NCBI GenBank assembly: GCA_036495095.1
Contig: DASXNK010000107.1
Span: 11,042 to 75,041, forward strand
Reading direction: 5' to 3'
Length of the DNA stretch: 64,000 bases
Origin: Candidatus Dormiibacterota bacterium
Lineage (GTDB): Bacteria > Chloroflexota > Dormibacteria > Aeolococcales > Aeolococcaceae
The stretch's first letter is position 1. Every line of letters begins with the position of its first letter. The notes beneath the pieces were generated by a model. The model ran no database searches. It saw only the letters and a program-made list of their open reading frames with translations, and was not told the DNA's origin. A program made the translations under genes and the position numbers. Below are positions 1-60,460 of this stretch, piece after piece.

Positions 1-31
1 GCCGGGGTGAGCGACTCCGTCTGCATCGCCA

Positions 32-697
32 TCAGACCGCCTCCAGGTAGCTCTCGTAGAGGTCGATACGGGTGCTGAAGGGCTCCGCCTCCGGGCCCCA
101 CAGCTCGGTGGAATCGAAGCGCACCGAGTAGACGTGCTGCGGGTTCTCGGCGATGAAGTGCGCGTTGGTGTCGGGCAGCACCATCGCCGGCTGGACCCGC
201 TCCACCGTGCCCTCGCGCCGGCGCACGTAGCGGGGCAGCCGGGTGTGGCCGGAGGTGTGGAGGTCGACGGTCCGGACCCGCTGGCCGACGGCGAACCGCG
301 GGGGATCGTCGACCTGCCGGAGCGACCCGGGACCCGCCGGCTTGTAGTCCGGCCGGTTCGGCTCGGGCGCCGGCGGCTCCTCCACCGCCTCACCCCGGCG
401 GGCTCGCACCCGGGCGTCGATCGCCCCCGGCGCGAGCACGCCGGTCTCGGTCAGCAGGGTCTCGGCCATCCGCAGCCACCGGTTGTAGTAGGGGAGGGCC
501 AGGTACTCGTCCGGGGGGGTGCGGTCGATGGCGTGGCGGAAGGCGTCGAGGTTGGCTCCCGTCAGCCGGGTCTGGCACAGCGCGCCGATGGCGAAGATCC
601 GCCCCTCCCACGGCTCGTGGAACACCGGCTCGTCGCGCTCCGGGAGCTGGACCCCGCCCATGTTCTCCACGCCGCCCAGGTCGTGGATGCCGTCCAT
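32..697 (-). CDS. nthB: Nitrile hydratase beta subunit (alpha subunit expected beyond the window edge)
   Basis: 221-aa ORF beginning MDGIHDLGGVENMGG with a YYNRWL-type motif characteristic of NHase beta. RBS-like CCTCCT complement lies upstream of the start. Confidence 0.7.
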   Translation of the reverse strand: MDGIHDLGGVENMGGVQLPERDEPVFHEPWEGRIFAIGALCQTRLTGANLDAFRHAIDRTPPDEYLALPYYNRWLRMAETLLTETGVLAPGAIDARVRARRGEAVEEPPAPEPNRPDYKPAGPGSLRQVDDPPRFAVGQRVRTVDLHTSGHTRLPRYVRRREGTVERVQPAMVLPDTNAHFIAENPQHVYSVRFDSTELWGPEAEPFSTRIDLYESYLEAV

Positions 698-27341: not shown

Positions 27342-28460
27342 TCAGCCTCCCTTCCGGCCGGGACCGCCGCCGGGACGCGCCGCGCGGCCGGTCAGCTCCC
27401 GCCGCGGCGCCCCCGCTCCGGCGGCGCCCTGGCCGGCCATCGACGCCTCGGGATCGACGGCGCCGCCCGGCGGCACGTCGATGCCGGCGGTGCGGCGGAC
27501 CGCGTAGGGGGGTCGCTGCCCGACCTCGTGGTAGATGCGGATGAGCAGCTCGCCGAGCAGGCCCATCGAGATGAACTGCACCCCGATGATCACCAGGAGC
27601 ACGCTGAGCACCAGCAGCGGGCGCTCGGCGATGCCCGCGCCGGAGACCACCTTGTAGACCAGCAGCCCGGTGAGGGTGGCGCCGCCGATCAGCAGGCTGA
27701 CCAGCCCGAGCAGCCCGAAGAACTGCATCGGCCGGGCGATGTAGCGGAGCAGGAACCGCACCGTGAGCAGGTCGAGGACGACGCGCAGGGTGCGGGTCAG
27801 CCCGTACTTCGAGGCACCCCGGGTGCGCGGCCGGTGGTTGATCGGCACCTCCGCGACCCGCGCCCCGGCGAGGCCGGCGAGCGCCGGGATGAAGCGGTGC
27901 ATCTCGCCGTACAGGTGGAGCTGCCGCACCACGTCCGAGTGGTACGCCTTGAGGGTGCAGCTGTGGTCGTGCAGCGGGGTGCTGGTGATCCGCGAGATCA
28001 GCCGGTTGGCCAGCCTCGAGGACAGCCGGTGGTCCCGCCGGTCCCGCCGCCAGCCGCTGACGACGTCGTAGCCCTCCTCCATGGGGGCGAGCAGGTGGGG
28101 CAGGTCGCGGGGATCGTTCTGCTGGTCGCCGTCCATCGGCACCACCGCCCGGCCTCGCGCGAAGCGGAAGCCGGCGCTGATCGCGGCGGTCTGCCCGAAG
28201 TTGCGCCGGAACTGGATGACCCGCACCCGGGGGTCGCGCCGGTGCCAGGCCAGTGCCCGGTCGCCGGTGGAGTCACTGCTGCCGTCGTCGACGAGGATCA
28301 CCTCGGCCGACTGGGGCATGGTGTCGAGCACCGCGAGCAGCTCCTCGACCGCGGGGTCGATGTTCTCCTCCTCGTTGTAGAGGGGGACGACCACGGTGAG
28401 GTCCAGGCCTCGCTGCGGCGGGGCCCGGTCGGGAGCCTGGGTGGGGGTCTCGACGGCCAT
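27342..28460 (-). CDS. GT2 polyprenyl-phosphate glycosyltransferase (DPM1/ArnC/GtrB-like) with C-terminal TM anchors
   Basis: VVVPLYNEE, ILVDDGSSD and DGD(Q) motifs plus C-terminal hydrophobic helices. ATG at 28460 with an AGGGAG RBS. Confidence 0.8.
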   Translation of the reverse strand: MAVETPTQAPDRAPPQRGLDLTVVVPLYNEEENIDPAVEELLAVLDTMPQSAEVILVDDGSSDSTGDRALAWHRRDPRVRVIQFRRNFGQTAAISAGFRFARGRAVVPMDGDQQNDPRDLPHLLAPMEEGYDVVSGWRRDRRDHRLSSRLANRLISRITSTPLHDHSCTLKAYHSDVVRQLHLYGEMHRFIPALAGLAGARVAEVPINHRPRTRGASKYGLTRTLRVVLDLLTVRFLLRYIARPMQFFGLLGLVSLLIGGATLTGLLVYKVVSGAGIAERPLLVLSVLLVIIGVQFISMGLLGELLIRIYHEVGQRPPYAVRRTAGIDVPPGGAVDPEASMAGQGAAGAGAPRRELTGRAARPGGGPGRKGG

Positions 28461-28642
28461 CTCCCTCTGATGATGCTGCTTCGCCCGCCGCATGTGTCAT
28501 CGCATCGGAGAAAGGAGGAGGGCGGCGACACCCGGTGTCGCCGCCCTCGGCCGGTCGTGATCCGTCTGACCACGCCCGCGTCCACGACCCGTGGGAGGGT
28601 CGGGCGACGTCAGCTTCGCCCAACCCCCCCGATGGATCGTGA

Positions 28643-29167
28643 TCAGTCGCCGGTCTTGGACTTGGCGCTGCCGCCGGTGGACTTGGCCGAGCCGCCGCTG
28701 CCGCCCTTGCCGCCGGTGGCCGTGCCGCCCTTGGCGCCGCTGCCGCCGTCGCCGGCGCCGCCGCACGCGGTGTTCCCGGTGCTGCCGCTCACCGACGAGC
28801 CACGGTTGCCGCTCATCGACGAGCCGCTCGCGCTCGAGTTCTGGTTGGGGTTGCTGCCCGGGCTGAGAACCGGCACGAACAGGTTGTTCAGCAGGTTGGT
28901 GCCGTTCAGCAGCTGGTTCTGGCCGCCCAGGATGTTGTTGAGGTCGTTGCTGGCGATGCCACTCAGCACGCCGCAGGCGATGCCGTTGCCGCCGGTGCTG
29001 CTGCCGCCGGCGCCGCCGGACGACTTGGCCGACCCGCCGGCGCCGCCCTTGGACGACGAGTGGGCGCTGCCACCCTTCGCCTTGGCTGCGTGGCTGGTCA
29101 TCGTCATCGCCGAGCCGCCCAGGACTGCGGCGGTGGTGATCGCGGCGATGCTCATGATGCGGATCAA
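28643..29167 (-). CDS. Secreted Gly/Ser/Asn-rich protein, paralogue A
   Basis: Signal-peptide-like N-terminus. Conserved core GNGIACGVLSGIASNDLNNILGGQNQLLNGTNLLNNLFVPVLSPG. TTG start with a strong GGGAGGG RBS. Confidence 0.6.
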   Translation of the reverse strand: MIRIMSIAAITTAAVLGGSAMTMTSHAAKAKGGSAHSSSKGGAGGSAKSSGGAGGSSTGGNGIACGVLSGIASNDLNNILGGQNQLLNGTNLLNNLFVPVLSPGSNPNQNSSASGSSMSGNRGSSVSGSTGNTACGGAGDGGSGAKGGTATGGKGGSGGSAKSTGGSAKSKTGD

Positions 29168-29422
29168 GATGTATCCCTCCCTGTTGCCGTCGGATCAGCC
29201 TTGCGGATCCGGGCAGTGACCGTTGCGTCTCTCCCTACGTTCGGGTCCGCCGGAACCTTGCAGTTTTCAGAAACCTGGGTTGACGGAGTTCACGGGCCCC
29301 CAGGTCGAGATCGGGCGCGCCCTCCCCCGACTCCTCCCCCCACAGGGTGATTGACCCTCACCTGAGAGCCCGCAGACAATGCCTCGACACGGGGCGCGGC
29401 CCCGGGTCACGGGACACGGTGC

Positions 29423-30454
29423 ATGGCTGAGCTGGGCCGGCGGGTCCTCATCGGGGGGCCATACTTCGAGGACCTGGCTCACGGCCGGGTCTTCGATGAC
29501 GCGCCGTCGGTCACGCTCACCGACGGGCTCGCCGCGGTCTCCCAGGCGATCTTCGGCGATCGCCTGCGCCTGCCCCTCGACGCCGGCCTCAGCGCCGCGG
29601 TCACCGGGGGCGGGGCGGCGCTGGCGCATCCGATGCTGGTGTGCAACGTCGTCATCGGCCAGAGCACCGGCCCCTCCCAGCGGGTCCGGGGCAACCTCTT
29701 CTACCGGGGCCTGGTGCTGCTCCGCCCGGTGTTCATCGGCGACACCCTCCGCACCCGCACCGAGGTGGTCGGGCTCCGGCAGAACGCGGTGCGCGAGGGC
29801 CGGCCGGCCACCGGGGTGGTGGCGCTGCGGGTCCGCGCCGAGAACCAGCGCGGCGAGCCGGTGCTCGACTTCTGGCGCTGCCCGATGCTGCCGCTCGCCG
29901 ACCCCGGGGTGCGCACCGGCCACGCCGACGGCTTCGACGACATCCCCGCGGACCTCGAGCCCGGACGGGTGGCCGCGGCGGTGCCCGGGGGGTGGCGGCT
30001 CGACGCCTTCCGCGTGGCCTGCCCAGGCGAGCACTTCGCCGCCCTCGTCGAGGGCACCGTCTACGAGGTCGAGAGCCGCGACACCGTCAGCTGCGCCCCG
30101 GAGCTCGCGCGGCTCACCCTGAACATGGCGCAGACCCACACCGACGCCGGCGCCAGCGCCTACGGCCGCCGGCTCGTCTACGGCGGCCACACCATCTCGG
30201 TGGCCGCGGCCCAGCTGGTGCGGGCGCTGCCCAACCTGGTGACCATCCTCGCCTGGCGGCGCTGCGACCACCTCGCGCCGGTCTTCGAGGAGGACCTGCT
30301 CCGCTCCGAGGTGGAGGTGGCCGGGCTCCATCCTCTCGACGGCGGCGGCGGGCTGGTCGAGCTGCGGGTGGTGGTGCACGCCGCCCGGGACGCCGCCGCG
30401 GGCGCCGAGGAGGTGCCGGTCCTGGACTGGCGGCTCTGGGGCCTGATGGCGTGA
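29423..30454 (+). CDS. MaoC-like (double hot-dog) enoyl-CoA hydratase/dehydratase
   Basis: 343-aa ORF with a hot-dog fold pattern; an N-terminal inactive half plus a C-terminal half is typical of mesaconyl-CoA/itaconyl-CoA hydratases. Confidence 0.75.
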   Translation: MAELGRRVLIGGPYFEDLAHGRVFDDAPSVTLTDGLAAVSQAIFGDRLRLPLDAGLSAAVTGGGAALAHPMLVCNVVIGQSTGPSQRVRGNLFYRGLVLLRPVFIGDTLRTRTEVVGLRQNAVREGRPATGVVALRVRAENQRGEPVLDFWRCPMLPLADPGVRTGHADGFDDIPADLEPGRVAAAVPGGWRLDAFRVACPGEHFAALVEGTVYEVESRDTVSCAPELARLTLNMAQTHTDAGASAYGRRLVYGGHTISVAAAQLVRALPNLVTILAWRRCDHLAPVFEEDLLRSEVEVAGLHPLDGGGGLVELRVVVHAARDAAAGAEEVPVLDWRLWGLMA

Positions 30455-30470
30455 GCGGGAGGGAGGCCGG

Positions 30471-31745
30471 ATGAGCGTGCAGCCGCCGGGCATCCTCGGC
30501 GGGATGCGGGTGGTCGAGGGATCGGCCTTCGTCGCCGCCCCGCTCGGCGGCATGACCCTCGCCCAGCTCGGCGCCGAGGTGATCCGCTTCGACCAGATCG
30601 GGGGCGGCCTCGACGCCCGGCGCTGGCCGATCACCAGGGAGGGTCGCAGCCTCTTCTGGGCCGGCATGAACAAGGGCAAGCGGTCGATCGCCGTCGACCT
30701 GCGCTCACCCCGGGGGCGGGAGCTGCTCACCGAGCTGATCACCGCGCCCGGTCCCGACGCGGGGCTCTTCCTCACCAACTTCCCGGTGCAGGGCTGGCTC
30801 GACTACGGGCGGCTCCGCGCCCGCCGCCCCGACCTGGTGATGGTGGCGATCACCGGCAACCACGACGGCTCGTCGGCGGTCGACTACACCGTCAACCCCG
30901 CCACCGGGTTCCCCTGGGCGACCGGCCCCACCAACCTCGCGGTGCCCTTCAACCACCTGCTGCCCGCCTGGGACGCGATCACCGGCACCCTCGCCGCCAC
31001 CGGCCTCCTCGCCGCCGAGCGCTTCCGCACCCGCAGCGGCCAGGGCCAGCTGGTGAAGCTCGCCCTCAGCGACGTGGCCATCGCCATGGTCGCGCATCTC
31101 GGCAAGATCGCTGAGGTGCAGATCAGCCGCCACGAGCGGCCGAAGTACGGCAACTATCTGTACGGCGCCTTCGGCCGCGACTTCCTGACCCGGGACAACC
31201 GGCGGGTCATGGTGGTGGCGCTCACCGCCCGGCAGTGGATGAGCCTCAAGGACGCCACCGGCCTCCACGAGAGCTTCGCCATGGTCGAGCAGCAGATGGG
31301 CGTCGACCTCTCCCGCGAGGGCGACCGCTTCACGGCCCGCGAGGTGCTCGGCGCCATCCTCAAGGCGTGGACGACCCGGCACACCCTGGCCGAGATCCGC
31401 GAGTGCTTCGACGAGCACGGGGTGTGCTGGGGCCCGTACCAGACCTTCACCCAGCTGGTCGACCAGGACCCGCGGTGCTCCACCGCGAACCCGATGTTCG
31501 CGGAGGTCGAGCAGCCCGGGATCGGCACCTACCTGATGCCGGGATCACCGCTCGACTGCGGCGCGATGCCCCGCGTCGAGGTGCGCCGCGCGCCCCTGCT
31601 CGGCGAGAACACCGACGAGATCCTGGCCACCTGCCTGGGGCTCGGTGACGCCGAGATCGGCCGGCTCCACGACGCCGGCGTGGTCGCCGGTCCCGAGCCG
31701 GAGGAGGCGAGCGTCAGCGTCACCGGCAGGCTCGCGGTCCAGTAG
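30471..31745 (+). CDS. Family III CoA-transferase (CaiB/BaiF family)
   Basis: N-terminal GMRVVEGSAFVAAPLGGMTLAQLGAEVIRFD is the classic family III signature. 424 aa. Confidence 0.85.
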   Translation: MSVQPPGILGGMRVVEGSAFVAAPLGGMTLAQLGAEVIRFDQIGGGLDARRWPITREGRSLFWAGMNKGKRSIAVDLRSPRGRELLTELITAPGPDAGLFLTNFPVQGWLDYGRLRARRPDLVMVAITGNHDGSSAVDYTVNPATGFPWATGPTNLAVPFNHLLPAWDAITGTLAATGLLAAERFRTRSGQGQLVKLALSDVAIAMVAHLGKIAEVQISRHERPKYGNYLYGAFGRDFLTRDNRRVMVVALTARQWMSLKDATGLHESFAMVEQQMGVDLSREGDRFTAREVLGAILKAWTTRHTLAEIRECFDEHGVCWGPYQTFTQLVDQDPRCSTANPMFAEVEQPGIGTYLMPGSPLDCGAMPRVEVRRAPLLGENTDEILATCLGLGDAEIGRLHDAGVVAGPEPEEASVSVTGRLAVQ

Positions 31746-31881
31746 AGCCCCCGGCCGCCGGGCGCGGGGCCGTGAATCCCACCGAACCTCGCAAGACTGT
31801 CAGAGCTCTCCCGTTGTGTAGCCGTAGGGTCAGGGAGCCGTCCAGTGTGGACTCCCACCCTCGGTCAGGGAGGGAAATTCC

Positions 31882-32454
31882 ATGCGTGTACTGGGTATTG
31901 CTGCGCTCGCGACCGCTGCGGTCATGGGCGGCTCGGCGATCACACTCACCACCTACGCCTCGGCATCGAGCCCGTCGAGCCCGTCCAGCCCCTCGAGCAG
32001 CGGCGGGCACGGCACCACCCAGGGTGGGAGCGGCACGTCCTCGTCGACGGGCGGCAGCGGCGGCGGCGCCACCTCGACCGGCGGCTCGGGCGGGAGCAGC
32101 ACCGGCGGCAACGGGATCGGCTGCGGTCTGCTCAGCGGGATCGGGAGCAACGACCTCAACAACATCCTCGGCGGCCAGAACCAGCTGCTCAACGGCACCA
32201 GCCTGCTGAACAACATCTTCGTGCCGATCCTGAGCCCGGGCGCCAAGGCGAACCAGAACAGCAACTCGGGCACGACCACGGCCAGCGGCAGCCACGGCGC
32301 CTCGAACAGCGCCAGCACCGGCAACACCAACTGCGGCAATGCCGGCAACGGTGGCACCGGTGGCAAGGGCGGCACCGCCACCGGCGGCAAGGGCGGCAGC
32401 GGCGGCAAGTCCACCTCGAAGGGCGGCAGCGCCAAGTCCACGAAGAAGTCCTAG
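31882..32454 (+). CDS. Secreted Gly/Ser/Asn-rich protein, paralogue B
   Basis: Signal peptide. Core GNGIGCGLLSGIGSNDLNNILGGQNQLLNGTSLLNNIFVPILSPG is nearly identical to paralogue A. GGGAGGG RBS 8 nt upstream. Confidence 0.6.
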   Translation: MRVLGIAALATAAVMGGSAITLTTYASASSPSSPSSPSSSGGHGTTQGGSGTSSSTGGSGGGATSTGGSGGSSTGGNGIGCGLLSGIGSNDLNNILGGQNQLLNGTSLLNNIFVPILSPGAKANQNSNSGTTTASGSHGASNSASTGNTNCGNAGNGGTGGKGGTATGGKGGSGGKSTSKGGSAKSTKKS

Positions 32455-32621
32455 CTTCCGAGCTCGCACTCCGGAGGGCGGTCGCAGCTCGCTGCGGCCG
32501 CCCTTGGTGTGCTCGGCGGTCTCCCGCGGAGTGGCCGGGTGCCGAGAGTCCGCGGGATGAAGGGCGCGCCGGGACCTCTGCTACGGTCGTCACGGTCGAG
32601 GAACCGAGGAGGAGTTCGAGC

Positions 32622-34357: not shown

Positions 34358-35524
34358 TCAGACCGCGACCAGCGCCTCCAGCGGCGCGACCAGCGCCTCC
34401 GGCGGTGGCATCGCGGCGATCTCGGCGGCCATCGCGGCCGCCGCGGTGCGGTAGGCGGGGTCGCCGAGCAGCAGGTCCATCTCGGCGCCCACCGTGGCCG
34501 CGGTGACCCGGTCGGTGAGCAGGGTGCGGCCGACTCCCCGAGCGGCGCAGAGCTGCGCGTTGAGGTACTGGTCGGCGCCCTGCGGGATGGTGAGCAGCGG
34601 CAGCCCGCAGGCGAGCGCGGCGAGCATGGTGCCGGCGCCGCCGTGGGTGACCACCGCGGCGCAGCGGGGCAGCAGCGCGCCGTGGGGCACGTAGCGCTCG
34701 ACCCGGACGTTGCCGGGCTGGGCGCCCAGACCGGCGGGGTCGTGGTCGGGACCCACCGTCACCACCAGGTCGAGGGGCCGCTCGCGCAGGCCCGCCACCG
34801 CGGTGGCGAGCACCGCCTGGTTGGAGTTGGTCACCGAGGTGCCGAGGGTGAGGTGCACCACCGGACGGCCGCCGAGGGACTCGAGCCAGGCGGGCGCCGG
34901 CGCGGTGTCGATGCTGGCCGCGCCCGGCCGCATCGGCAGCTGGTCGAGCGCCGGGCCGCGGGGGTTGCGCAGGCTGGGCGGGCAGATGTCGAGGGTGGGC
35001 CCGCGACCGGCGCCGGCGAGGGCGGGGGAGGGGAGGCCGCGTTCGACCCAGAGCGGCTCCGCCGCCGCGGCGCAGGCGTCGAACACGGCGGTGCCGGCGA
35101 GCGGCCCGAGGGTGTGGTGCACCGACGGGATCCCCGCAGCGGCCGCCACCGCCGGCGCCGCGAACTCGAGGCTCTCGTGGACGATCAGGTCGGGCCTCCA
35201 GCGCTCGACCTGGGCGGTGAGCCCGGCCGCCATCGCCTCCGCGGCCACCTCGACGAAGAGGTGGGGGGTGAACCAGAGCAGGATCTCCTCGGGGAGGAGC
35301 TGCTCCCAGGGCCGGCCGGGATGGCGTTTGAGCAGCAGCGGGAACCACTCCTCGCCGTCGAGCCCCGCCTCGAGCACGGCCAGCCCCGCGGCGGCGGCGC
35401 GCGCCCCCATCCGCGGGGCGGTGGCGACGGCGACGTCGTGCCCCGCCCCCTGGAGCGCGCGGGCGAGCGGCAGCATCGGCTGCAGGTGACCGTGGGCGGG
35501 GGTCGAGGAGAACAGGACGCGCAT
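34358..35524 (-). CDS. GT1 UDP-glycosyltransferase (MGT / macrolide-glycosyltransferase-like)
   Basis: N-terminal MRVLFSSTPAHGHLQPMLPLARAL and C-terminal donor-binding VTHGGAGTMLAALACGLPLLTIPQGADQ. Confidence 0.8.
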   Translation of the reverse strand: MRVLFSSTPAHGHLQPMLPLARALQGAGHDVAVATAPRMGARAAAAGLAVLEAGLDGEEWFPLLLKRHPGRPWEQLLPEEILLWFTPHLFVEVAAEAMAAGLTAQVERWRPDLIVHESLEFAAPAVAAAAGIPSVHHTLGPLAGTAVFDACAAAAEPLWVERGLPSPALAGAGRGPTLDICPPSLRNPRGPALDQLPMRPGAASIDTAPAPAWLESLGGRPVVHLTLGTSVTNSNQAVLATAVAGLRERPLDLVVTVGPDHDPAGLGAQPGNVRVERYVPHGALLPRCAAVVTHGGAGTMLAALACGLPLLTIPQGADQYLNAQLCAARGVGRTLLTDRVTAATVGAEMDLLLGDPAYRTAAAAMAAEIAAMPPPEALVAPLEALVAV

Positions 35525-35810
35525 CGGCGGGCGCGTCGAGAGTAACGCTCGGGATGCCGCCCGCAGGGGTTGGTCGGTGTCCATGCCCCGGCGCCGGAGC
35601 GCGCAGTCGCCGCTGACAGCACTCCCGGTGCCCCTGATGAATGCACGCTGAAATGCACGTACAGTCGGTTTGACGCGGTTGATGACAGCGTGATGAAACC
35701 GGCGCGGCGGGCTCGCAAGCTTCACACATTGTGAGCGTTGAAGCCATATCGCCGGGTTCCGGCGAGGACGCAAGAGCTTCGATCGCCACGCCTGTTGATC
35801 TTCTGTTCAG

Positions 35811-35829
35811 GTTCCGTTAGTGTTCCGTT
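35811..35829. promoter_or_regulatory. Direct repeat GTTCCGTT-N3-GTTCCGTT, flanked by GTTCAG copies, upstream of the RND operon
   Basis: Four GTTC-containing repeats within 35 bp, ~90 bp upstream of the RND-1 start, in a lower-GC intergenic region. Confidence 0.3.
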
Positions 35830-35917
35830 CAGCAGGAAGGGATGGCGGTCGAAGGACGGAGATGAAGATGCCGCACGCGATGCCGGCCGCCACCCGGAGA
35901 GGAGGGGGACACACGTC

Positions 35918-38900
35918 ATGATCCGCGAGCTCGTCGCGCTGAGCCTCAAGTTCCGCGTCCTCGTCGTCGGCGTGGCCGTCGTGGTCATGGGCGTCGGAGT
36001 GTTCCAGCTCCGCAGCGCGTCGGTGGACGCGCTCCCCGAGTTCGCGCCGCCCACGGTCACCGTGCAGGCCGAGGCGAGCGGCCTGTCCGCCGCCGAGGTG
36101 GAGCAGTACGTCACCACCGGCCTCGAGCAGGACCTGCTCAACGGGGTTCCCTGGCTCGATCACATGGAGTCGAACTCCTCGGCCGGGCTGGTGCGGGTCG
36201 ACCTCGTGTTCAAGCCCGGCACCGACCCGCTGAAGGCGCGGCAGGCGGTGCAGGAGCGCCTCACCCAGGCGTACGTGCTTCCCCAGGTCGGCACGCCGCC
36301 GACGATGCTCCAGCCGCTGTCCTCGACCAGCCGGGTGATGATGGTCGGCCTGTCGTCGAAGGACCTCTCCCTCACCGACCTGTCGGTCCTGGCGCGCTGG
36401 AAGATCAAGCCGCGGCTCACCGGCATCCCCGGGGTGGCCAACGTGAGCATCTGGGGCCAGCGCGACCGCCAGCTCCAGGTGCAGGTCGATCCGGACAAGC
36501 TCCGCCAGAACGGCGTGACCCTGAACCAGGTGATCAGCACCGCCGGCAACGCGCTGTTCGTGTCGCCGCTGAACTTCCTCCAGGCGTCGACGCCCGGGAC
36601 CGGCGGCTTCGTCGACACCTCCACCCAGCGGCTGGCGATCCAGCACGTGCTGCCCGTGACCACCGCCAAGAACCTCTCCTCGGTGACCATCGAGGACACC
36701 ACCGGCAAGTCGCTCACCCTCGGTGACGTGGCCTCCGTGGTCGAGGACCACCAGCCCTACCTGATCGGCGACGCGGTCCTGCACAACGGCCCCGGCCTGA
36801 GGCTGGTGATCCAGAAGTTCCCGGAGGCGAGCACCCAGCAGGTGACCAGGGGCGTGCAGGACGCCCTCGCCGCGCTCCGTCCCGGCCTGTCCGGCGTCGC
36901 CATCGACACCGGCGTCTACCAGGCGCAGTCGTTCGTCGACACCGCGCTCCACGACCTCGGCGTGGTCGGGCTGGTGAGCCTGGCCATGTTCGTGCTCGTG
37001 GTCGGGCTGCTCCTCCTCTCCTGGCGGCGGGCGGTGATCACCGTCACCGCCGCGCTGCTGTCCCTCGTGGCCGCCGCCTACGTGCTCTACCTGCGCGGCA
37101 GCACCTTCAACCTCATGGTGCTGGGTGGCCTGGCGATGGCCCTGGGCGTGGTCGTCGACGACGCCGTCGCCGAGCTCGGCGCGGTCCGCCGCAGGCTGCG
37201 CGAGCACCGTGCCTCGGGGGCCTCCACCTCCATCGCCACGGTCATCGCCGAGGCGTCGGGCGCGGTGCGCGGCCCGCTCCTCTACGGGACCCTGGTGGCC
37301 CTGCTGGTGCCGCTCCCGCTCCTCTTCCTCGACGGGGTGGCGGGGTCGTTCACCCGGCCGATCGTCCTCTCGTACGCGATCGCGGTGGCGGTCTCGACGG
37401 TGGTGGCGCTCGCGGTCACCCCCGCCCTGGCCTCGCTGCTGCTCGGCGGCGCGAGCGACGACCGGCCCGGCCCGGGGCTCCGCGCCGCCCACCGCGTCTT
37501 CGACGTCACCGTGGCGCGGCTCATCGGCCAGCCCCGCGCGGCCTACGCGATGGTCGCGCTGCTGCTCGCCGCCGGGCTGGCGGTGGTCCCGCAGCTCACC
37601 ACCCGCGCCGCGCTGCCCACCCCGCAGGACCGCAACGTGCTGGTTCGCTGGCAGGCCGTGCCCGGCACCTCGCTGGCCGAGATGGACCGGATCACCGGCG
37701 CCGCCTCCGCGGAGCTGCGCCACCTGTCCGGGGTGCGCGACGTCGGCGCCCACGTGGGCCGCGCGATCGCCTCCGACGAGGTCGTCGACGTCAACGCCGG
37801 CGAGATGTGGGTCAGCCTCAACGACACCGCCGACTACGACGCCACCCTGGCGGCGGTGCGCCGCGTCCTCCGCGGCTATCCCGGCCTGGCGAGCACGATC
37901 GAGTCGTACACGCAGGACCGTGTCGACGCCGTCACCGCCGACGCGGGGACGGGCAGCGACCTGGCGGTGCGGGTGTACGGCACCGACCTGGCCACGCTGA
38001 AGAGCACCGCGCAGGAGATGAGCCACCGGGTCGCCAGGGTGAACGGCGTGGTCCAGCCCAAGGTGCTGGAGCAGCCGGAGCAGCCCACCCTCGAGGTGAA
38101 GGTCGACCTCGACGCGGCCCAGAAGTACGGGATGGCCCCGGGCGACGTGCGCCGCGCCGCCTCCACCTTCTTCGCCGGCACCCTGGTCGGGAACCTGTAC
38201 CAGGACCAGCGGATCTTCGACGTGGTGGTGTGGAGCACGCCGTCGACGCGGTACGCCCCCGCCAACCTCGCCGATCTCATGGTCGACACCCCCGCCGGCC
38301 CGCAGGTGCGGCTCGGGGACGTCGCCAGTGTGAAGGTGGTGCCCTATCCGACCCAGCTCCTCCACGACGCCGACTCGCGCTACGTGGAGATCGACGCGCA
38401 GATCGGCGGCCGGGACACCGGCGCGGTGCTGAACGACGTGCGCCGCCAGGTGGCGGCGATGCCGATGCCGCTCGAGTATCACGCGGAGGTGTTCTCCCAG
38501 CTGGCCCAGCAGCAGGGCCAGGACCGGACCATGCTCGGCCTCGCCGCCGGCACCGCGATCGTCATCTTCCTGCTGCTGCAGGCGGCGTTCGGCAGCTGGC
38601 GGCTGGCGACGCTGGCCTCGCTGCTGCTGCCGCTGTCGCTGGTCGGCGGCATTGCGGGCAACCTCCTCGCCGGCGGTGAGCTCTCGCTCGCCGCGATGCT
38701 GGGCCTGGTCACGGTGCTGGGCCTGACGGCGCGCCACATCGTGGTGCTGGTCTGCGGGTACCTGGGTCTCGAGGCGGCGGAGGGATTCGTCGACCGCGGC
38801 GCCGCGGTGCGGCGTGTCACCCGCGACCGGGTCGGCCCCATCCTGCTCACCGCGGCCGCGACGGCGGCGGTGTTCGTCCCGGTGCTGGTGGCGGGAAGCC

Positions 38901-39106
38901 GCCCCGGCACCGAGGTCCTGTACCCGATGGCAGCCGTGGTCCTGGGTGGCCTGGTCAGCTCGACGCTGGTCGCCCTGGTGGTGGTGCCGTCGCTGTATCT
39001 GCGCTTCGCACCCGCGTTGACGCTGACCGGCAGGGGGACCAGTCGGGTCCGCCTGCGGCCGCGTGGCGAACGGGTCGTCACGAGCTCGCCAATGGGGGAA
39101 GGTTGA
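35918..39106 (+). CDS. RND efflux permease, CzcA/CusA (HME)-like, copy 1
   Basis: 1062 aa. N-terminal ALPEFAPPTVTVQAEASGLSAAEVEQYVTTGLEQ matches the heavy-metal-efflux RND family. 12-TM architecture with two large loops. Confidence 0.85.
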   Translation: MIRELVALSLKFRVLVVGVAVVVMGVGVFQLRSASVDALPEFAPPTVTVQAEASGLSAAEVEQYVTTGLEQDLLNGVPWLDHMESNSSAGLVRVDLVFKPGTDPLKARQAVQERLTQAYVLPQVGTPPTMLQPLSSTSRVMMVGLSSKDLSLTDLSVLARWKIKPRLTGIPGVANVSIWGQRDRQLQVQVDPDKLRQNGVTLNQVISTAGNALFVSPLNFLQASTPGTGGFVDTSTQRLAIQHVLPVTTAKNLSSVTIEDTTGKSLTLGDVASVVEDHQPYLIGDAVLHNGPGLRLVIQKFPEASTQQVTRGVQDALAALRPGLSGVAIDTGVYQAQSFVDTALHDLGVVGLVSLAMFVLVVGLLLLSWRRAVITVTAALLSLVAAAYVLYLRGSTFNLMVLGGLAMALGVVVDDAVAELGAVRRRLREHRASGASTSIATVIAEASGAVRGPLLYGTLVALLVPLPLLFLDGVAGSFTRPIVLSYAIAVAVSTVVALAVTPALASLLLGGASDDRPGPGLRAAHRVFDVTVARLIGQPRAAYAMVALLLAAGLAVVPQLTTRAALPTPQDRNVLVRWQAVPGTSLAEMDRITGAASAELRHLSGVRDVGAHVGRAIASDEVVDVNAGEMWVSLNDTADYDATLAAVRRVLRGYPGLASTIESYTQDRVDAVTADAGTGSDLAVRVYGTDLATLKSTAQEMSHRVARVNGVVQPKVLEQPEQPTLEVKVDLDAAQKYGMAPGDVRRAASTFFAGTLVGNLYQDQRIFDVVVWSTPSTRYAPANLADLMVDTPAGPQVRLGDVASVKVVPYPTQLLHDADSRYVEIDAQIGGRDTGAVLNDVRRQVAAMPMPLEYHAEVFSQLAQQQGQDRTMLGLAAGTAIVIFLLLQAAFGSWRLATLASLLLPLSLVGGIAGNLLAGGELSLAAMLGLVTVLGLTARHIVVLVCGYLGLEAAEGFVDRGAAVRRVTRDRVGPILLTAAATAAVFVPVLVAGSRPGTEVLYPMAAVVLGGLVSSTLVALVVVPSLYLRFAPALTLTGRGTSRVRLRPRGERVVTSSPMGEG

Positions 39107-39107
39107 G

Positions 39108-39581
39108 ATGCACCGCCGCAATCACTGGGTCGCCGCCGGTCTCATCGTCGTCGGCCTCGGCCTGACCGGGTGCGGCACGACCAAGGCTGACTACGGAGAG
39201 GCCGGCCAGGGGAGTCCCGCCGAGGTCGTGCCGGTGAAGGGCACCAGTCTCAACCGGGTGACCCTCACCTCCGATGCCGCCTCGAAGCTCGGCGTCCAGA
39301 CCGTGCCGGTGGCGGCCGCGGTCATGCCGGCGAGCACCGACGGCACCGCCGCCGCCCCGGAGACGACCGTCCCCGTCAACGCGGTGATCTACGACAAGGA
39401 CGGCAACACCTGGGTGTACACGGTCACGCAGTCGCTCACCTACCAGCGGCAGGCGGTCGGCATCGCCCGGGTCGACGGTGACACCGCGGTGCTGAAGTCC
39501 GGTCCCGCACCGGGGACCAGGGTCGTGACCGTGGGTGCCCAGGAGCTCCTCGGCGCCGAGCTGGGTGTCGCAGGGGAATGA
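39108..39581 (+). CDS. Lipoprotein resembling a truncated membrane-fusion (periplasmic adaptor) protein
   Basis: Lipobox LTGCGT. C-terminal beta-barrel/MP-like pattern (VPVNAVIYDKDGNTWVYTV ... GTRVVTVGAQELLGAEL). GGGGGAAGG RBS. Translationally coupled to RND-2 (ATGA). Confidence 0.5.
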   Translation: MHRRNHWVAAGLIVVGLGLTGCGTTKADYGEAGQGSPAEVVPVKGTSLNRVTLTSDAASKLGVQTVPVAAAVMPASTDGTAAAPETTVPVNAVIYDKDGNTWVYTVTQSLTYQRQAVGIARVDGDTAVLKSGPAPGTRVVTVGAQELLGAELGVAGE

Positions 39582-42500
39582 CCACGCCGGGGGGGAACCG
39601 CACGCTGATGCGGTTCATCGTCAGCACCAGTCTGCGGTTCCGCTTCCTGGTGGTCGCCGCCGCCACCGCCATGATGGTGGTGGGCATCCTCCAGATCCAG
39701 AACATGCGGGTCGACGTCTTCCCTGAGTTCGCGCCGCCGCGCGTCCAGATCCAGACGATCTGCCAGGGTCTGTCCACCGCGGATGTCGAGGCGCTGGTCA
39801 CCGTCCCGCTCGAGCAGGCCCTGAACGGGATCAAGGGCCTCGACGTGATGCGGTCCAAGTCGGTGCCCCAGCTCTCCGCCATCGACATGATCTTCAAGCA
39901 GGGCGCCGACGAGCTCCAGGCTCGCCAGCTCGTCCAGGAGAGGCTGTCGACGGTGGTGAGCAGCCTGCCCACCTGGGCGTCGCCCCCGGTGATGCTGGCG
40001 CCGCTCTCGGCGACCGCCCGGGTGATGCAGATCGGGATGACCTCCAAGGAGCACACCCAGGTCGCCATGTCGATGATGGCGTACTGGACGGTCAGGTCGC
40101 GGATGCTCGAGGTTCCCGGGGTGGCCAACGTGGCCATCTGGGGCGAGCAGCTGCAGATGCGCACCGTCCAGGTCAAGCCCGAGGAGATGCAGGCGAAGAA
40201 GGTGACCCTCGAGGCGGTCATGGAGGGGGTCTCGTCCTCGATCGACACCGGCCTGCTGCGGTTCTCCAGCGGCAACGTGATCGGCACCGGCGGCAACGTG
40301 GTGACCGCCGGCCAGTCGATCAACATCCGCCACGTCATCCCGATCGTCACCCCCGCGGACCTCGCCCGGATCACGGTGCAGAACACCGATGGCACCTCGG
40401 TCCCGATCAGCTCGGTGGCCGACGTCAAGGAGGACCACCAGCCCCTGATCGGCGACGCCATCGTGGGCGACAGCACCGGCCTGATGCTGGTGGTCGAGAA
40501 GCTGCCGTGGGCCGACACCGTCAGGGTCACCCAGGGCGTGGAGGAGGTGGTCCGGATGCTCCAGCCGGGCCTCCCCGGGATCACCTTCGACACCAGGATC
40601 TTCCAGCAGGCCGACTTCATCCAGACCTCGATCCACAACCTCACCCAGTCGCTGCTGCTGGGCTTCGCGCTGGTGGTCGCCATCCTCCTGCTCTTCCTCT
40701 TCGAGTGGCGGGTGGCGCTGATCAGCCTGCTGACCATCCCGCTGTCGCTGATGGCGGCGATGCTGGTGCTCTACCTGCGCGGTGACACGGTCAACACGAT
40801 GACCCTCGCCGGGCTGGTGATCGCCCTGGGGGCGGTGGTCGACGACGCCATCATCGACGTCGAGAACATCCTCCGACGCCTTCGCGAGGCCCGCCGCGGC
40901 GGCAGCGAGGTGTCGACCGGGCGGATCATCCTCGACGCCTCGCTCGAGGTGCGGAGCCCGATCGTCTACGCGACGATGATCATCGTCGCCGCGGCGATCC
41001 CGGTGTTCCTGCTCGGGGGGCTGACCGGGTCGTTCTTCCAGCCGCTCGCGGTCTCCTACACGCTGGCGATCGTCGCCTCGATGGCGGTGGCGCTGACGGT
41101 GACGCCGGCGCTCACCCTGATCCTGCTGAGCCGGACCCGGGTGGAGCGGCGCGAGTCGCCGGTCACCCGCTGGCTGCAGCGCCGGTACACGGCGATGCTG
41201 TCGCGCATCGTGGTGCGACCGCGCAGCGTCTACCTCGGCTTCCTCGCGGTGGTCGCGGCCGCGGTGCTGCTGCTCCCGCAGATGGGGTCGAGCTTCTTCC
41301 CCACCTTCAAGGAGCGCGACTTCCTGATCCACCTGCTCACCACCCCGGGCACCTCCGCCCAGGAGCAGGACCGGATCGTCATCGCCCTCGGCAAGGACCT
41401 GCGCAGGGTTCCCGGGGTGCTCAGCTTCGGCAGCCACATCGGCCAGGCGTACCAGGGCGAGGAGGTCGCGGGCGTCAACTTCGCCGAGAACTGGCTGAGG
41501 ATCGACCCCAACGCCGACCTCGACGCGACCCTTGCGGGGGTGCGCAAGGTCATCGCCAGGTACCCCGGCGTCTATCGCGACGTGATGACGTACCTCAACG
41601 AGCGGATCGAGGAGGTGCTCACCGGCGCCAAGGAGCCGATCATCGTCCGCGTCTACGGTCAGGACCTGCAGACCCTGCGCGACGAGGCGGCGCAGATCCA
41701 GCACCGGCTGGCGGGCATCAGGGGCATCGCCGACGACCACACCGACCTCCAGTTCGACACTCCCCAGATCCAGGTCGAGGTCGACCTCGCCAAGGCCGCC
41801 GCCTACGGGTTGAAGCCCGGTGACGTGCGCCGCGCCGCCTCCACCCTGGTCGCCGGCGAGGAGGTCGGCGACATCTTCCGCGACGGCAAGGCCTACGACA
41901 CCGTGGTGTGGAGCACCCCCGAGACCCGCTCGAGCGTGGCGAGCATCAGCGAGCTGCCGATCGACACCCCGTCGGGCAAGGCGGTGCGGCTCGGCGACGT
42001 CGCCACCGTGAAGGTCCAGCCCAATCCCAGCTCGATCGACCGTGAGAACGACTCCCGCAAGATCGACGTGGCCGCGTCCGTCAGCGGTCGTGACCTCGGC
42101 TCGGTGGTCGCCGACGTGCGCAAGGCCGTGGACAGCATGCAGCTGCCCCAGGGGTACAACGCCGAGGTGCTCGGCGAGTACACCGAGCGCCAGGGGGCGC
42201 AGGGTCAGATGCTCTGGGTGGGCCTCATCGCCGGCCTGGCGATCCTGCTCCTGCTGCAGACGTCATTCCGCAGCTGGCGGCTCGCCGTGCTCATCCTGAG
42301 CACCCTGCCGATGGCCCTGGTCGGCGGTGTCATCGGCGCCTACCTCGGCGGCGGCATCGTCTCGATCGGCTCGCTGGTCGGGTTCTTCACGGTCTTCGGG
42401 ATCGCCGCCCGCAACGGCATCCTGCTGATCAACCACTTCCAGCACCTCGAGGAGGTCGAGGGCGAGCCCTTCGGACCGGAGCTGGTGCTGCGCGGCGCCC

Positions 42501-42739
42501 GGGAGCGGCTCTCGCCGATCCTGATGACCTCGCTGGCGACGGGCCTCGCCGTTGTGCCCCTGGTGGTGCTCGGCGCCCGGCCCGGATACGAGATCGAGTA
42601 CCCGCTGGCGGTGGTCATCATCGGCGGGCTGCTGACCTCGACGCTGCTCAACCTGTTCCTGGTGCCCTCCCTCTACCTGCGTTTCGGCAGGCGCCGCGAG
42701 GGAAGCCCGCGGGGATGGCGACTGCGTCGCAATCCCTGA
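39578..42739 (+). CDS. RND efflux permease, CzcA/CusA (HME)-like, copy 2
   Basis: 1053 aa, paralogous to copy 1 (VFPEFAPPRVQIQTICQGLSTADVEALVTVPLEQ). Confidence 0.85.
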   Translation: MTTPGGNRTLMRFIVSTSLRFRFLVVAAATAMMVVGILQIQNMRVDVFPEFAPPRVQIQTICQGLSTADVEALVTVPLEQALNGIKGLDVMRSKSVPQLSAIDMIFKQGADELQARQLVQERLSTVVSSLPTWASPPVMLAPLSATARVMQIGMTSKEHTQVAMSMMAYWTVRSRMLEVPGVANVAIWGEQLQMRTVQVKPEEMQAKKVTLEAVMEGVSSSIDTGLLRFSSGNVIGTGGNVVTAGQSINIRHVIPIVTPADLARITVQNTDGTSVPISSVADVKEDHQPLIGDAIVGDSTGLMLVVEKLPWADTVRVTQGVEEVVRMLQPGLPGITFDTRIFQQADFIQTSIHNLTQSLLLGFALVVAILLLFLFEWRVALISLLTIPLSLMAAMLVLYLRGDTVNTMTLAGLVIALGAVVDDAIIDVENILRRLREARRGGSEVSTGRIILDASLEVRSPIVYATMIIVAAAIPVFLLGGLTGSFFQPLAVSYTLAIVASMAVALTVTPALTLILLSRTRVERRESPVTRWLQRRYTAMLSRIVVRPRSVYLGFLAVVAAAVLLLPQMGSSFFPTFKERDFLIHLLTTPGTSAQEQDRIVIALGKDLRRVPGVLSFGSHIGQAYQGEEVAGVNFAENWLRIDPNADLDATLAGVRKVIARYPGVYRDVMTYLNERIEEVLTGAKEPIIVRVYGQDLQTLRDEAAQIQHRLAGIRGIADDHTDLQFDTPQIQVEVDLAKAAAYGLKPGDVRRAASTLVAGEEVGDIFRDGKAYDTVVWSTPETRSSVASISELPIDTPSGKAVRLGDVATVKVQPNPSSIDRENDSRKIDVAASVSGRDLGSVVADVRKAVDSMQLPQGYNAEVLGEYTERQGAQGQMLWVGLIAGLAILLLLQTSFRSWRLAVLILSTLPMALVGGVIGAYLGGGIVSIGSLVGFFTVFGIAARNGILLINHFQHLEEVEGEPFGPELVLRGARERLSPILMTSLATGLAVVPLVVLGARPGYEIEYPLAVVIIGGLLTSTLLNLFLVPSLYLRFGRRREGSPRGWRLRRNP

Positions 42740-55290: not shown

Positions 55291-55979
55291 ATGGGGCAGT
55301 CGTCCCGGGGGGGCGGGCGATCGCCGGCTTCCTCGCCGAGCTGACGCCACCGGAGACGGAGGATCTTCGGGCCCGGGCCCGTCATCGGCGATTCGCCCGC
55401 GGATCGTCGATCGTCAACGAGGGCGAGGTCCCGCGTCGGGTCGTCGTGCTGCTCAGCGGCCGCGTCAAGGTCTGCGACCATTCGGCGGATGGCCGCGAGA
55501 TCGTGCTCGGAGCCCGGGGCCCCGGCGACCTGATCGGGGAGATCTCCGTGATCGACGACCAGCCCTGCTCGGCCACGGTGACCGCCTTCGAGCCCGTCGA
55601 GGCGATGGTGATCGACGCCGCGGGGTTCACGGCCTTCCTCGACAGCCATCCCCGCATCCTCCGCGTGCTGCTGCGGTCGGTGGTACGGAAGCTCCGCGAC
55701 TCCGACCGCAAGCGCGTCGAGTTCGGGGTGTACGACACCGAGGGCCGGGTCGCGCGCCGGCTCGTGGAGCTGGCCGACGAGTACGGTGACGATCAGGAGG
55801 GAAGGGTCGGCATCACCCTGCCGCTCACGCAGCAGGAGCTGGCCGGCTGGACCTGTGCGTCGCGGGAGGCGGTCAGCAAGGCGCTGGGGAGCCTGCGCGG
55901 ATGCGGCTGGGTCGAGACCGATCGCCGGCGCGTCACCATCGTGAATCTCGATGCCCTTCGCCGTCGCGGGGGCCTCTGA
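55291..55979 (+). CDS. Crp/Fnr-family cNMP-binding transcriptional regulator; N-terminus out of frame at a G7 homopolymer
   Basis: The cNMP-binding beta-roll (RRFARGSSIVNEGEVPRRVVVLLSGRVKVC) and C-terminal HTH (LTQQELAGWTCASREAVSKAL) are in frame 0 from 55320 onward. The only start (ATG 55291, MGQSSRGG) is in frame +1, and one extra G in the G7 run 55307-55313 joins the two. Confidence 0.6.
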
Positions 55980-56003: not shown

Positions 56004-57125
56004 TCACTCCGACTCGCGTTCGACCTCGTCGTGCAGGTCCGCGAGGATCTGGCAGAACCCGGGGTTGGCCCAATAGTCGTGGGAGCGCAGGCCACCGCCA
56101 CCCGGCCGCGCATCCTGCACGTTGTCGACCATCCTGTCCGTCACCGTGACAGGCCCGAGCTCGCCCTCGGCTGGAGACCACCGGTGAAAGAGGCCGGGGC
56201 CGCCCGTGTGGGGCTGACCTCGGCGCCACGTGACCGGCGGCTGAAGGGAGTCGGCAACCGGATCACGACGATCCCAGACGTTGATCCACCGCCGCGGGCA
56301 GAGCCGGCCCGCGTCGGTGCCCCAGCCGAGGAGGTCGGCGTACTTCCGCAGCGGGCTGCCGGCGGTGACCAGGCCGCGGATCTTGAGGTCGGTCGAGGGA
56401 TCGAGGTCGGAGAGCACGTCGAAGCCGACCACCGTGCCGTTGCTGTGGGTGTTGAGCACGATGGCGCGCACATCCTCGCGGCAGCTGAGAGAGGTCAGCA
56501 CCGCCTCGACGAAGCTGCGGACGCGCTCCCGGTACTTGTGGCGGGCCACATAGCCGCCGACATCCTGGGAGACCTGCCAGACGATGCTGAACGGACCGGA
56601 CGGGCGCCGGTTGGGCTCGCGCCGGCGCGGATGACGCCGCATGCGATTCCGCAGCTGCCTCCTCTGCGCCTCGTCCCGCAGTCGGAGCGAGCCGGGATAC
56701 GAGGTGGCGCCCGGAGATCCCTTGCGACGGAGGCTCTGGAGGGTGCCGACGAGCATCTGCACCGCACCTCGCGCGGTGATGTAGCTCCGGGCGTAGCGCA
56801 CCGACCAGAGGATGATCGCGAACAGTCCCAGAGGGTCGGGCATGCTCTCCTCGAAGCACGTGTACACGAGGGCGACGTGGGCGCAGTGCGCCCCGGGGGT
56901 GGCGAGCGGGCGGGAGGGATCGAGGCGGTCCATCGACGTCGGGCTGGGACCGGCAACGTACACCGCTCCATGGCCCCGCTCGGGATCGTCGCCGAGCCCG
57001 GGGATGACCTCCCGCAGCATCGAGTGGAGGGCATCCGCGTAGCCGGGCATGCCCTGGCCGTCGTCGGGCGGCTCCTCGAACCCGATGCCGTGGATCGTGA
57101 CCAGGCAGGTCAGCGGCCCGCTCAT
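56004..57125 (-). CDS. Alpha/beta-hydrolase-like (lipase/esterase-type) protein, translationally coupled to the AC-STAND gene
   Basis: LVTIHGIGFE oxyanion-type region, NTHSNGT nucleophile-elbow-like motif, and later Asp/His candidates (WINVWDRRDPVA, RSHDYWANP). ATG overlaps the upstream stop (ATGA). Confidence 0.55.
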   Translation of the reverse strand: MSGPLTCLVTIHGIGFEEPPDDGQGMPGYADALHSMLREVIPGLGDDPERGHGAVYVAGPSPTSMDRLDPSRPLATPGAHCAHVALVYTCFEESMPDPLGLFAIILWSVRYARSYITARGAVQMLVGTLQSLRRKGSPGATSYPGSLRLRDEAQRRQLRNRMRRHPRRREPNRRPSGPFSIVWQVSQDVGGYVARHKYRERVRSFVEAVLTSLSCREDVRAIVLNTHSNGTVVGFDVLSDLDPSTDLKIRGLVTAGSPLRKYADLLGWGTDAGRLCPRRWINVWDRRDPVADSLQPPVTWRRGQPHTGGPGLFHRWSPAEGELGPVTVTDRMVDNVQDARPGGGGLRSHDYWANPGFCQILADLHDEVERESE

Positions 57126-60100: not shown

Positions 60101-60460
60101 GATGTTGACCGATGCCCCGAAGTAGTCGTCCTCGTCCCGAATCGGCTCGCCGATGTGCAGCCCGATGCGCACCTCGAGTGGGTGCCCACCGGGTTGACAG
60201 TTGTGCCGGTGCACCGCCTGCTGCATGGCGACGGCGCAGGCGACAGCATCGAGCGCCGACCCGAAGGCGACCATCAGTCCGTCGCCCACCTGCTTCACCT
60301 CCTCGCCGCAGCCGTGCGAGACCACCGCACGGAGCAGACGATAGTGGGCGCGGCGCACTCCCTCTGCGACCTCGTCTCCCAGACGGTCGTAGAGATCCGT
60401 CGACCCCACGATGTCGGTGAAGAGCAGGGTGACGGTTGCGCCCCTCCGCACGGACACCAT
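57122..60460 (-). CDS. Multidomain signalling protein: class III adenylyl/guanylyl cyclase domain + STAND/AAA P-loop NTPase + TPR repeats
   Basis: N-terminal CHD (LLFTDIVGSTDL...GDGLMVAFG), Walker A LIAGEAGIGKTRV, then ~700 aa of helical/TPR-like repeats. 1112 aa. No C-terminal LuxR HTH is visible. Confidence 0.85.
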   Translation of the reverse strand: MVSVRRGATVTLLFTDIVGSTDLYDRLGDEVAEGVRRAHYRLLRAVVSHGCGEEVKQVGDGLMVAFGSALDAVACAVAMQQAVHRHNCQPGGHPLEVRIGLHIGEPIRDEDDYFGASVNIAKRICDIADGGQIIASDLVRNLAEPRGRHGFRGLGIRSIRGVRTPIALAEVVWEPRLPAPSPMSLAAGADTPFVGRRDVLTLLHAAWARARNGDRRLVLIAGEAGIGKTRVAAEFATSVHAGGGTVLYGRCDEATQTPYQPFTEALRHHLSHVPAEDLQLQHRDAAWEVARLIPELCDRLAGQPQPRSGDPEIERYRLFEAVVSTLVGASSLTPMVLVLDDLHWSDRPTLQLLQHLLQSPVPSSLLVLGTYRDSDLARTHPFVETLTALRRRQVVERISMAGLDRGSVATLIHALAGGEASEALVSAIHSETEGNAFFLEEVIRHLLETGSIASGSGCDVPVHSVERAGIPASVREVIGERLSRLSEGCRSLLAHASVLGRQFDLAVLPGVTGLEEEPLISALEEAIERRLVAEVKDRPDPRYAFSHALVRQALYEGLSTPRRQRAHLRAAEAIEATAAPAMASRIPEIATHYRLAGHNADPSTAAHWARLAGDLSATVFAWEEAILHWRTALDLLAKLDPDPPARARLLRRLGVAMFISNLDYAAAAEYLEEALRLHRDMGDEAGAAKMHAHLGAQYITNPEMTEVNLADAHLRAAEAVLSAGGPSLSNGYLCAGMALVATWRMRPAEGMALSERSMLIGERSGNEVLWANAAAVHGCQLVMCGRVAEGVALCERAWNTADAAGHQVPAFMATVVLCGLHCFFRRDPEAARRSAERELASSRAATSPIHQDVLRSALAYGLVLGGALDRARSVGPPPRSAQFHAQYLLALAEGRWEEGLEVLEHSRARARQSGNRWFEAADSSRIAELLRLLGRHAEAEVELLSALPRHGEQNLPHELRCRCQLSLVLAETGRSEQAREQLARCRAIVAGGEDWGGAATALDLAEASILATDGRMGEATHLFSEAVDGFRRQGLPWDVAEAHQLHGRALLAQGGPARVQAIVRFDAALDALQLLEAGERWHLSVLADRDRATTTAGPVVPSFDVLGSAEGR

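Follow-up and report, generated by a model that had tools for sequence, protein, structure and literature searches.

An undescribed, lineage-restricted family of exported glycine-rich proteins in Candidatus Dormibacteria

Two genes in a 64,000-nucleotide (nt) stretch of the Candidatus Dormiibacterota contig DASXNK010000107.1 (here the window; positions count from its first letter) belong, to judge from their sequences, to an undescribed, lineage-restricted family of exported proteins of Candidatus Dormibacteria. Gene A (28643..29167, minus strand) encodes 174 amino acids (aa) and gene B (31882..32454, plus strand) 190 aa. The two are divergently transcribed, their start codons lie 2714 nt apart, and genes for a MaoC hydratase and a CoA-transferase stand between them. 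GGGAGGG, a Shine-Dalgarno sequence, precedes each start by 6-7 nt (29175..29181, minus strand, for A; 31868..31874, plus strand, for B). This layout, about 2.7 kb from start to start in opposite orientation, had been noticed in an original prediction made from the letters alone and is confirmed here, as are the common signal peptide, the conserved core of about 45 aa and the second GNT-CG block, core and block with one Cys each. What emerges is a new orphan protein family of a familiar general kind, genuine but over-described in that prediction.

Dormibacteria are abundant in soil and have never been cultured. The surface biology of this uncultured clade is uncharacterised (PMC10608941), and a conserved, multi-copy, apparently co-regulated exported family that is found nowhere else is plausibly a lineage-specific component of its envelope or matrix. 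The family is a convenient marker for the clade. Should the proteins self-assemble, they would be an independent, non-homologous addition to the short list of bacterial surface-coating families. As it stands, this is an orphan family whose value is for annotation (it yields a new domain definition and a promoter motif), and the established picture is unchanged.

Protein build, distribution and reading frame

All members have the same order of parts: a signal peptide (MRIMGIAAIATAAVLGSTAMTLTTHASKA), a Gly/Ser flank with GGxGG units, GGNGIxCG, the core, a Ser/Gly/Asn linker, TGNxxCG, and a basic C-terminal GGxGG tail rich in Lys and His. The family core, about 40 aa long and made up of Leu, Asn and Gly, is near-invariant (consensus LSGxxSNDxNNxLGGQNQxLNGxxLLxNLFxPxLSPG). 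A and B have 46 aa of core in common (GGNGIxCGxLSGIxSNDLNNILGGQNQLLNGTxLLNNxFVPxLSPG), at 28856..28993 in A (minus strand, aa 59-104, GGNGIACGVLSGIASNDLNNILGGQNQLLNGTNLLNNLFVPVLSPG, including Cys65) and at 32104..32241 in B (plus strand, aa 75-120, including Cys81). Their common second block, TGNTxCG...KGGTATGGKGGSGG, reads TGNTACG in A (Cys135) and TGNTNCG in B (Cys151) and, with the Lys-rich GGxGG tail, occupies 28643..28780 (minus strand) and 32317..32454 (plus strand), respectively. The two Cys of each protein are thus at 65/135 and 81/151, a spacing of 70 residues in both, and bracket the Asn-rich core plus the hydrophilic linker.

A predicted Sec-type signal peptide with n-, h- and c-regions is present in all members. 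In A it covers aa 1-30 (29078..29167, minus strand), with Arg in the n-region, a hydrophobic h-region of about 20 aa and small residues at -3/-1, and ends in TSHAAKA ahead of KGG; in B it covers aa 1-28 (31882..31965, plus strand) and ends in TTYASA ahead of SSP. Both were read from sequence and hydropathy, and the signal peptide is conserved in all members. Gene A has a TTG start where its orthologues have ATG one codon later. In B the signal peptide is followed by an insertion of 51 nt, encoding SSPSSPSSP... The mature proteins, of about 145-160 aa, consist of 28% Gly, 20-22% Ser and 10% Asn, with an isoelectric point (pI) of 9.8-10.0 and a grand average of hydropathy (GRAVY) of -0.4 to -0.6, and are hydrophilic. 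Hydropathy plots identify the signal peptide as the sole strongly hydrophobic stretch, with both ends of the core mildly hydrophobic.

Selection acts unevenly along the protein. Within orthologous groups the ratio of nonsynonymous to synonymous substitution rates (dN/dS) is 0.20 in the core and 0.5-0.7 in the flanks, and between groups that of the linker nears 1; selection is therefore on the sequence of the core, whereas in the flanks it is on composition alone. The core's hydrophobic moment is highest at 100-120 degrees (0.42-0.48), against at most 0.26 at 160-180 degrees, pointing to helical rather than beta periodicity. Readings of the core as an EF-hand, dockerin, RTX or LRR element were dropped by eye, since key positions misfit.

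Two members, P0001 (237 aa) and P0027 (364 aa), are natural fusions with two complete family modules in one polypeptide. Their second module retains a remnant of the end of a signal peptide (VVVHATSSGG). They probably derive from a tandem pair of family genes, and the fusions suggest that modules act together. In another group, S4 (L011 1354..1830 and L012 7785..8285), GLLSG is replaced by one or two CGHGNGG units, which add Cys; its upstream motif is the variant TCAAG...GGT.

The family is narrowly distributed. Among 5.8 billion proteins a word-indexed search found 26 relatives, each of about 173 aa and unnamed, with Candidatus Dormibacteraeota as the sole taxon label, and an exhaustive profile search with the 87-aa core region against 1.84 billion representatives returned only 7 proteins at E<=1e-3. 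The most distant members, P0030 and P0031, retain the family build. A scan of one genome per GTDB species located 12 loci in four metagenome-assembled genomes (MAGs), labelled Dormibacterota or Chloroflexi, and a further family locus was found in sediment metagenome GCA_000763215; the MAGs originate from ordinary soils, with one sediment metagenome among the sources. Sequence searches of Pfam, NCBIfam and PDB to E<=10 gave no family match, which upholds the claim of a novel secreted protein family; PF07172 at E=6.5 in one member, from a Pfam scan of all 28 members, is at noise level. Rfam contributed no family in the window and one noise match in the region. Literature searches on glycine-rich proteins of Dormibacterota and on chaplins of Ktedonobacteria turned up no paper. 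In MAG SMAG_U5500 two contigs end in or at gene B (L010 start, 2..136, minus strand; L006 start, 9..590). Paralogous repeats apparently break short-read assemblies, and copy numbers in MAGs are probably underestimated.

The sense frame of A and B is supported as the coding frame by comparison of family copies. Our own gene caller, based on G+C content at the third codon position (GC3), missed both genes and chose antisense open reading frames (ORFs), because Gly codons raise the G+C content at the second position, and GC3 is equal in the antisense frame with the same wobble position. These antisense ORFs (31953..32441, minus strand, opposite B; 27528..29219, plus strand, opposite A) are long, rich in Pro and Leu and equally high in GC3, a trap for GC-frame gene finders in a window of about 74% G+C. 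They are also what would favour the view that A and B are untranslated, the antisense ORF being the real product or the DNA non-coding and merely GC-rich. That view is refuted. Start, stop, Shine-Dalgarno sequence and signal peptide are kept in 20 of 20 family copies; differences in their codon alignment rise from position 2 through position 1 to position 3 (6203/7588/10729); stop codons break the wobble-sharing antisense frame in 12 of the 20; and dN/dS is 0.2 in the core.

Age of the pair and common expression signals

The original prediction described A and B as near-identical, highly similar at the DNA level and the outcome of a recent inverted duplication. This goes well beyond the alignments. 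Protein identity is 52% in a local alignment (BLASTP, E=3e-28) and 67% in a global one (MAFFT). The two genes are clearly paralogous, with a similarity far beyond chance, but not near-identical. Aligning the two loci at the nucleotide level, as had been proposed, delimits an inverted repeat of 423 nt at 79% identity that is confined to the Shine-Dalgarno sequence and coding sequence, ending at the former on one side and at the stop codon on the other. This repeat, with no transposase nearby, is what speaks for a recent local duplication around the MaoC and CoA-transferase genes, or for an assembly artefact.

The wider comparison refutes both. Searches with the window genes (tblastn) recovered the same gene order in three other Dormibacterota MAGs: chromate transporter (ChrA), a family 2 glycosyltransferase (GT2), A, MaoC, CoA-transferase, B and a conserved ORF of unknown function. 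The order is present in L004 and L007, and in L010 plus L006 the assembly breaks inside B; flanking proteins at these loci are 77-87% identical to those of the window. In an identity matrix the 20 copies fall into six orthologous groups, spread over four conserved chromosomal sites, or about six paralogues per genome. Groups A and B occupy the present locus, the tandem pair S2a/S2b follows PALP and MFS genes, S3 lies between YceI and Ppx, and S4 between a rhodanese/metallo-beta-lactamase gene and endonuclease V. Amino-acid identity is 79-88% among A copies, 74-85% among B copies and 60-67% between A and B. With 68-72% identity to S3 and S2a, A is at least as near to these paralogues at other sites as it is to B. 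A and B differ at 124-135 of 519 nt within genomes and at 121-145 of 519 between genomes (about 24%). These values are equal, so there has been no concerted evolution, and gene conversion between A and B was looked for and not found. The copies are therefore not each other's nearest relatives, their flanks are not part of the repeat, and the pair is present in related genomes. Together with copies that are 21% diverged at the DNA level and recur as the same pair in three independent MAGs, this dates the duplication to before these genomes diverged and excludes an assembly artefact.

Each family gene appears, on sequence grounds, to be an autonomous unit with a promoter-like motif, a strong Shine-Dalgarno sequence and a terminator hairpin. 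In every copy (C)AGGGAGGG stands 6-9 nt ahead of the ATG and a GC-rich hairpin follows the stop codon. The hairpin of A (28593..28630, minus strand) is terminator-like without a T run; that of B (32475..32504, plus strand), also terminator-like, is followed by TTGGTGTG. Upstream regions are otherwise unalignable between paralogue groups, yet (T)GCAAG-N16-18-CGT recurs in them at a constant spacing from the start codon. In A the motif reads GCAAGG-N17-CGTA (29236..29261, minus strand, 69 nt upstream of the start) and in B GCAAGA-N16-CGTT (31791..31815, plus strand, 67 nt upstream). In the 221.6 kb of the window and loci, GCAAG-N16-18-CGT[ATC] has 29 matches, 16 of which fall 48-77 nt ahead of a family gene. 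The distant member P0030 is among these, and in the P0031 group the sequence reads TGCAAAC-N16-CGTC. Promoters of extracytoplasmic function (ECF) sigma factors typically have 'AAC' at -35 and 'CGT' at -10 (PMC5758882), and the CGT at -10, the 16-18 nt spacer and the consistent distance from the gene are as in such promoters. Position and conservation across paralogue groups are the sole grounds on which the motif is called promoter-like. The claim that the proteins are highly expressed finds a suggestive sign in the strong Shine-Dalgarno sequence and nothing beyond it. A small hairpin ahead of the Shine-Dalgarno sequence in most paralogue groups is thermodynamically ordinary (z about -1), and no element is claimed there.

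The motif also occurs elsewhere. GCAAGCTT-N-CGTT is found at 35715..35739 (plus strand) of the window and at L006 4031..4055 (plus strand), in the orthologous intergenic region. It is flanked by an EryCIII-like glycosyltransferase gene (34358..35773, minus strand) and by the first of two AcrB-type resistance-nodulation-division (RND) transporter genes (35738..39106 and 39578..42739), and this RND operon may share a regulon with the secreted family. At the tandem-pair site a second conserved copy, GCAAGGAATCC...CGTT, precedes the S2a promoter motif by about 150 nt (L001 4564..4588, L005 6049..6073, L013 9155..9179) and may be a second promoter.

Possible function of the family

We tentatively favour, at somewhat less than an even chance, a role for A and B as co-regulated extracellular proteins of the envelope or matrix that associate via their conserved core. 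The proteins would be exported by Sec and cleaved after an A-x-A-like site. Their basic Gly-rich tails would probably retain them in the extracellular matrix or on the surface of the cell, homo- or heterotypic association would probably proceed through the conserved amphipathic core, and the two invariant Cys would serve either to close a loop of 70 residues or to join subunits. A single alternative (ECF-type) sigma would turn on all the paralogues at once, as an envelope or a stress/developmental regulon. A bolder proposal, which we consider rather unlikely, takes the six paralogues for the building blocks of a proteinaceous surface coat or matrix of a hitherto unknown kind in Dormibacteria. 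It would be analogous in function to chaplins or curli but unrelated to them in sequence; disordered Gly-rich chains would be joined by the Leu/Asn core and two disulfide-forming Cys, and a dedicated ECF-type sigma would switch on the block.

Several results weigh against a co-regulated envelope or matrix role. These can be summarised as (i) homology searches (Pfam, NCBIfam, PDB) lend support to no function; (ii) the Sec signal peptide call is heuristic; (iii) no cell-wall anchor is present (no LPXTG, lipobox, SLH or LysM, and no Pfam match), which makes surface retention a conjecture; (iv) predicted structures lend self-assembly no support, the two AlphaFold2 runs giving a predicted local distance difference test score (pLDDT) of 41 for B with the family alignment and 45 for a natural two-module member; (v) across the whole window the loose motif shows no enrichment (10 found, 6.9 expected), and its -35 element is AAG (TGCAAG) in most members, not the canonical AAC, with TGCAAAC in the P0031 group; (vi) neither a sigma-70 r2/r4 domain nor an ECF sigma gene was found among the ten small window ORFs scanned.

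Chaplins (PF03777, Streptomyces ChpA-H) resemble the family in being small and Sec-secreted, in having several paralogues per genome, some of them paired, and in their two conserved Cys, occasional two-domain forms and GVLSG pentapeptide. The ECF sigma BldN drives transcription of chaplin and rodlin genes (PMC6101532), a parallel to the ECF-like promoter motif found here. In contrast, the Cys of the family lie 70 residues apart and flank the core whereas chaplin Cys lie inside a hydrophobic domain of about 40 aa; the family is hydrophilic, basic and 28% Gly with helical, not beta, periodicity in the core; and it lacks sortase-anchored long forms and comes from a different phylum. A chaplin or rodlin match had been named beforehand as what would speak against a novel family. 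By sequence the family is not a chaplin, because hmmscan at E<=10 on core sequences and all 28 members gave no PF03777 match, and hhalign against 20 genuine ChpH sequences returned a probability of 0.9% over 5 aligned columns (GVLSG only). The curli proteins CsgA/CsgB (Curlin_rpt) are likewise secreted and rich in Gly, Asn, Gln and Ser, and in both cases paralogue pairs suggest major and minor subunits; the family differs in lacking five-fold curlin repeats and any Pfam match, and no csgEFG-like export genes occur at the four sites. Plant glycine-rich proteins of PF07172 have a similar GGx/GGxGG composition, as presumably do mycobacterial PGRS domains, but the Leu/Asn core has no counterpart in generic glycine-rich families.

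These comparisons bear on the suggestion in the original prediction that the proteins are amyloid-like. By analogy, a divergent functional amyloid of chaplin, curli or rodlin type would coat the cell or build a biofilm matrix with cross-beta core fibres. Small secreted proteins in many paralogues, with two conserved Cys, an Asn/Gln/Gly-rich core, two-domain variants, the GVLSG pentapeptide and an ECF-like motif recalling BldN control, would suit such a role. We nevertheless judge it unlikely, as there is no match to PF03777 or, beyond noise, to any other Pfam family at E<=10 in the 28 members, the proteins are hydrophilic, curli-type export genes are absent from all sites, and the helical hydrophobic moment agrees with the AlphaFold2 model of the two-module member, which draws the cores as helices at low confidence; the suggestion has gained no positive support. 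Secreted hydrophilins, desiccation protectants or ice-binding proteins, whose disordered Gly-rich chains (possibly with polyglycine-II-like GGx runs) would hold water or bind ice around the cells, in a clade that is common where soils are dry and cold, are quite unlikely too. Such a role would account for the Gly content, the hydrophilicity, the predicted disorder and the GGx runs in the tails, which presumably resemble snow-flea antifreeze protein, and Dormibacteria are prevalent in cold soils (PMC10608941). Against it, conservation is highest in the Leu/Asn core and not in the Gly-rich flanks (dN/dS 0.5-1.0), the GGx register is short and broken, no PDB sequence matches at E<=10, and the MAGs come from ordinary soils and a sediment. 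Very improbable, finally, are Sec-dependent cationic antimicrobial peptides or bacteriocins. Small, Gly-rich, Cys-containing secreted proteins of pI about 10 would fit that description, but the six paralogues keep their orthologous positions among housekeeping genes, none of the sites has an immunity, transporter or mobile-element gene, and selection on the core is purifying, not diversifying.

Neighbouring genes

The MaoC and CoA-transferase genes that stand between A and B form a separate metabolic operon outside the family, and the bracketing is a frozen accident of synteny, positional and not functional, because the neighbours do not recur at other family sites. The operon comprises a MaoC-like double-hotdog hydratase (29423..30454, plus strand) and a mesaconyl-CoA-transferase-like family III CoA-transferase (30471..31745, plus strand), behind a sigma70-like promoter of its own (TTGACC-18-GACAAT, 29351..29380). 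The hydratase is Rv0216-like (2bi0, E=3e-88). Over its full length the CoA-transferase is closely homologous to the solved mesaconyl-CoA C1-C4 CoA-transferases (Mct) 7xkg and 8apq (E about 1e-174), and it scores 586.6 bits on the NCBIfam equivalog TIGR04253, below its cut-off of 725. These matches suggest a mesaconyl/citramalyl-CoA module in Dormibacteria, either like the 3-hydroxypropionate bicycle or for itaconate/mesaconate.

A GT2 gene (27342..28493, minus strand) lies directly downstream of A in all four genomes. Its product has C-terminal membrane helices and is a polyprenyl-phosphate sugar transferase whose best matches are ArnC and the protein-glycosylation enzyme PgfS; it could supply lipid-linked sugar for extracytoplasmic glycosylation of Ser/Thr-rich exported proteins. 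This adjacency raises a slim chance that the family proteins are substrates or partners of their neighbours, either O-glycosylated via GT2 or tied to the MaoC/CoA-transferase operon. Stretches such as the SSPSSPSSP of group B are typical of O-glycosylated linkers. Conserved synteny is weak evidence here, however, since the four genomes are closely related; hairpins separate A from GT2, and the operon has its own promoter. The other three sites have none of GT2, MaoC and CoA-transferase beside family genes; the neighbours there are unrelated housekeeping genes (enolase, Ppx, Der GTPase, PGI, aminotransferase and others), and clustering of neighbours across 13 loci found no family, and no operon partner, common to different sites.

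Farther along the window, an adenylate/guanylate cyclase-AAA-TPR signalling protein of 1112 aa is encoded at 57122..60460 (minus strand), near a Crp-family regulator (55446..55979).

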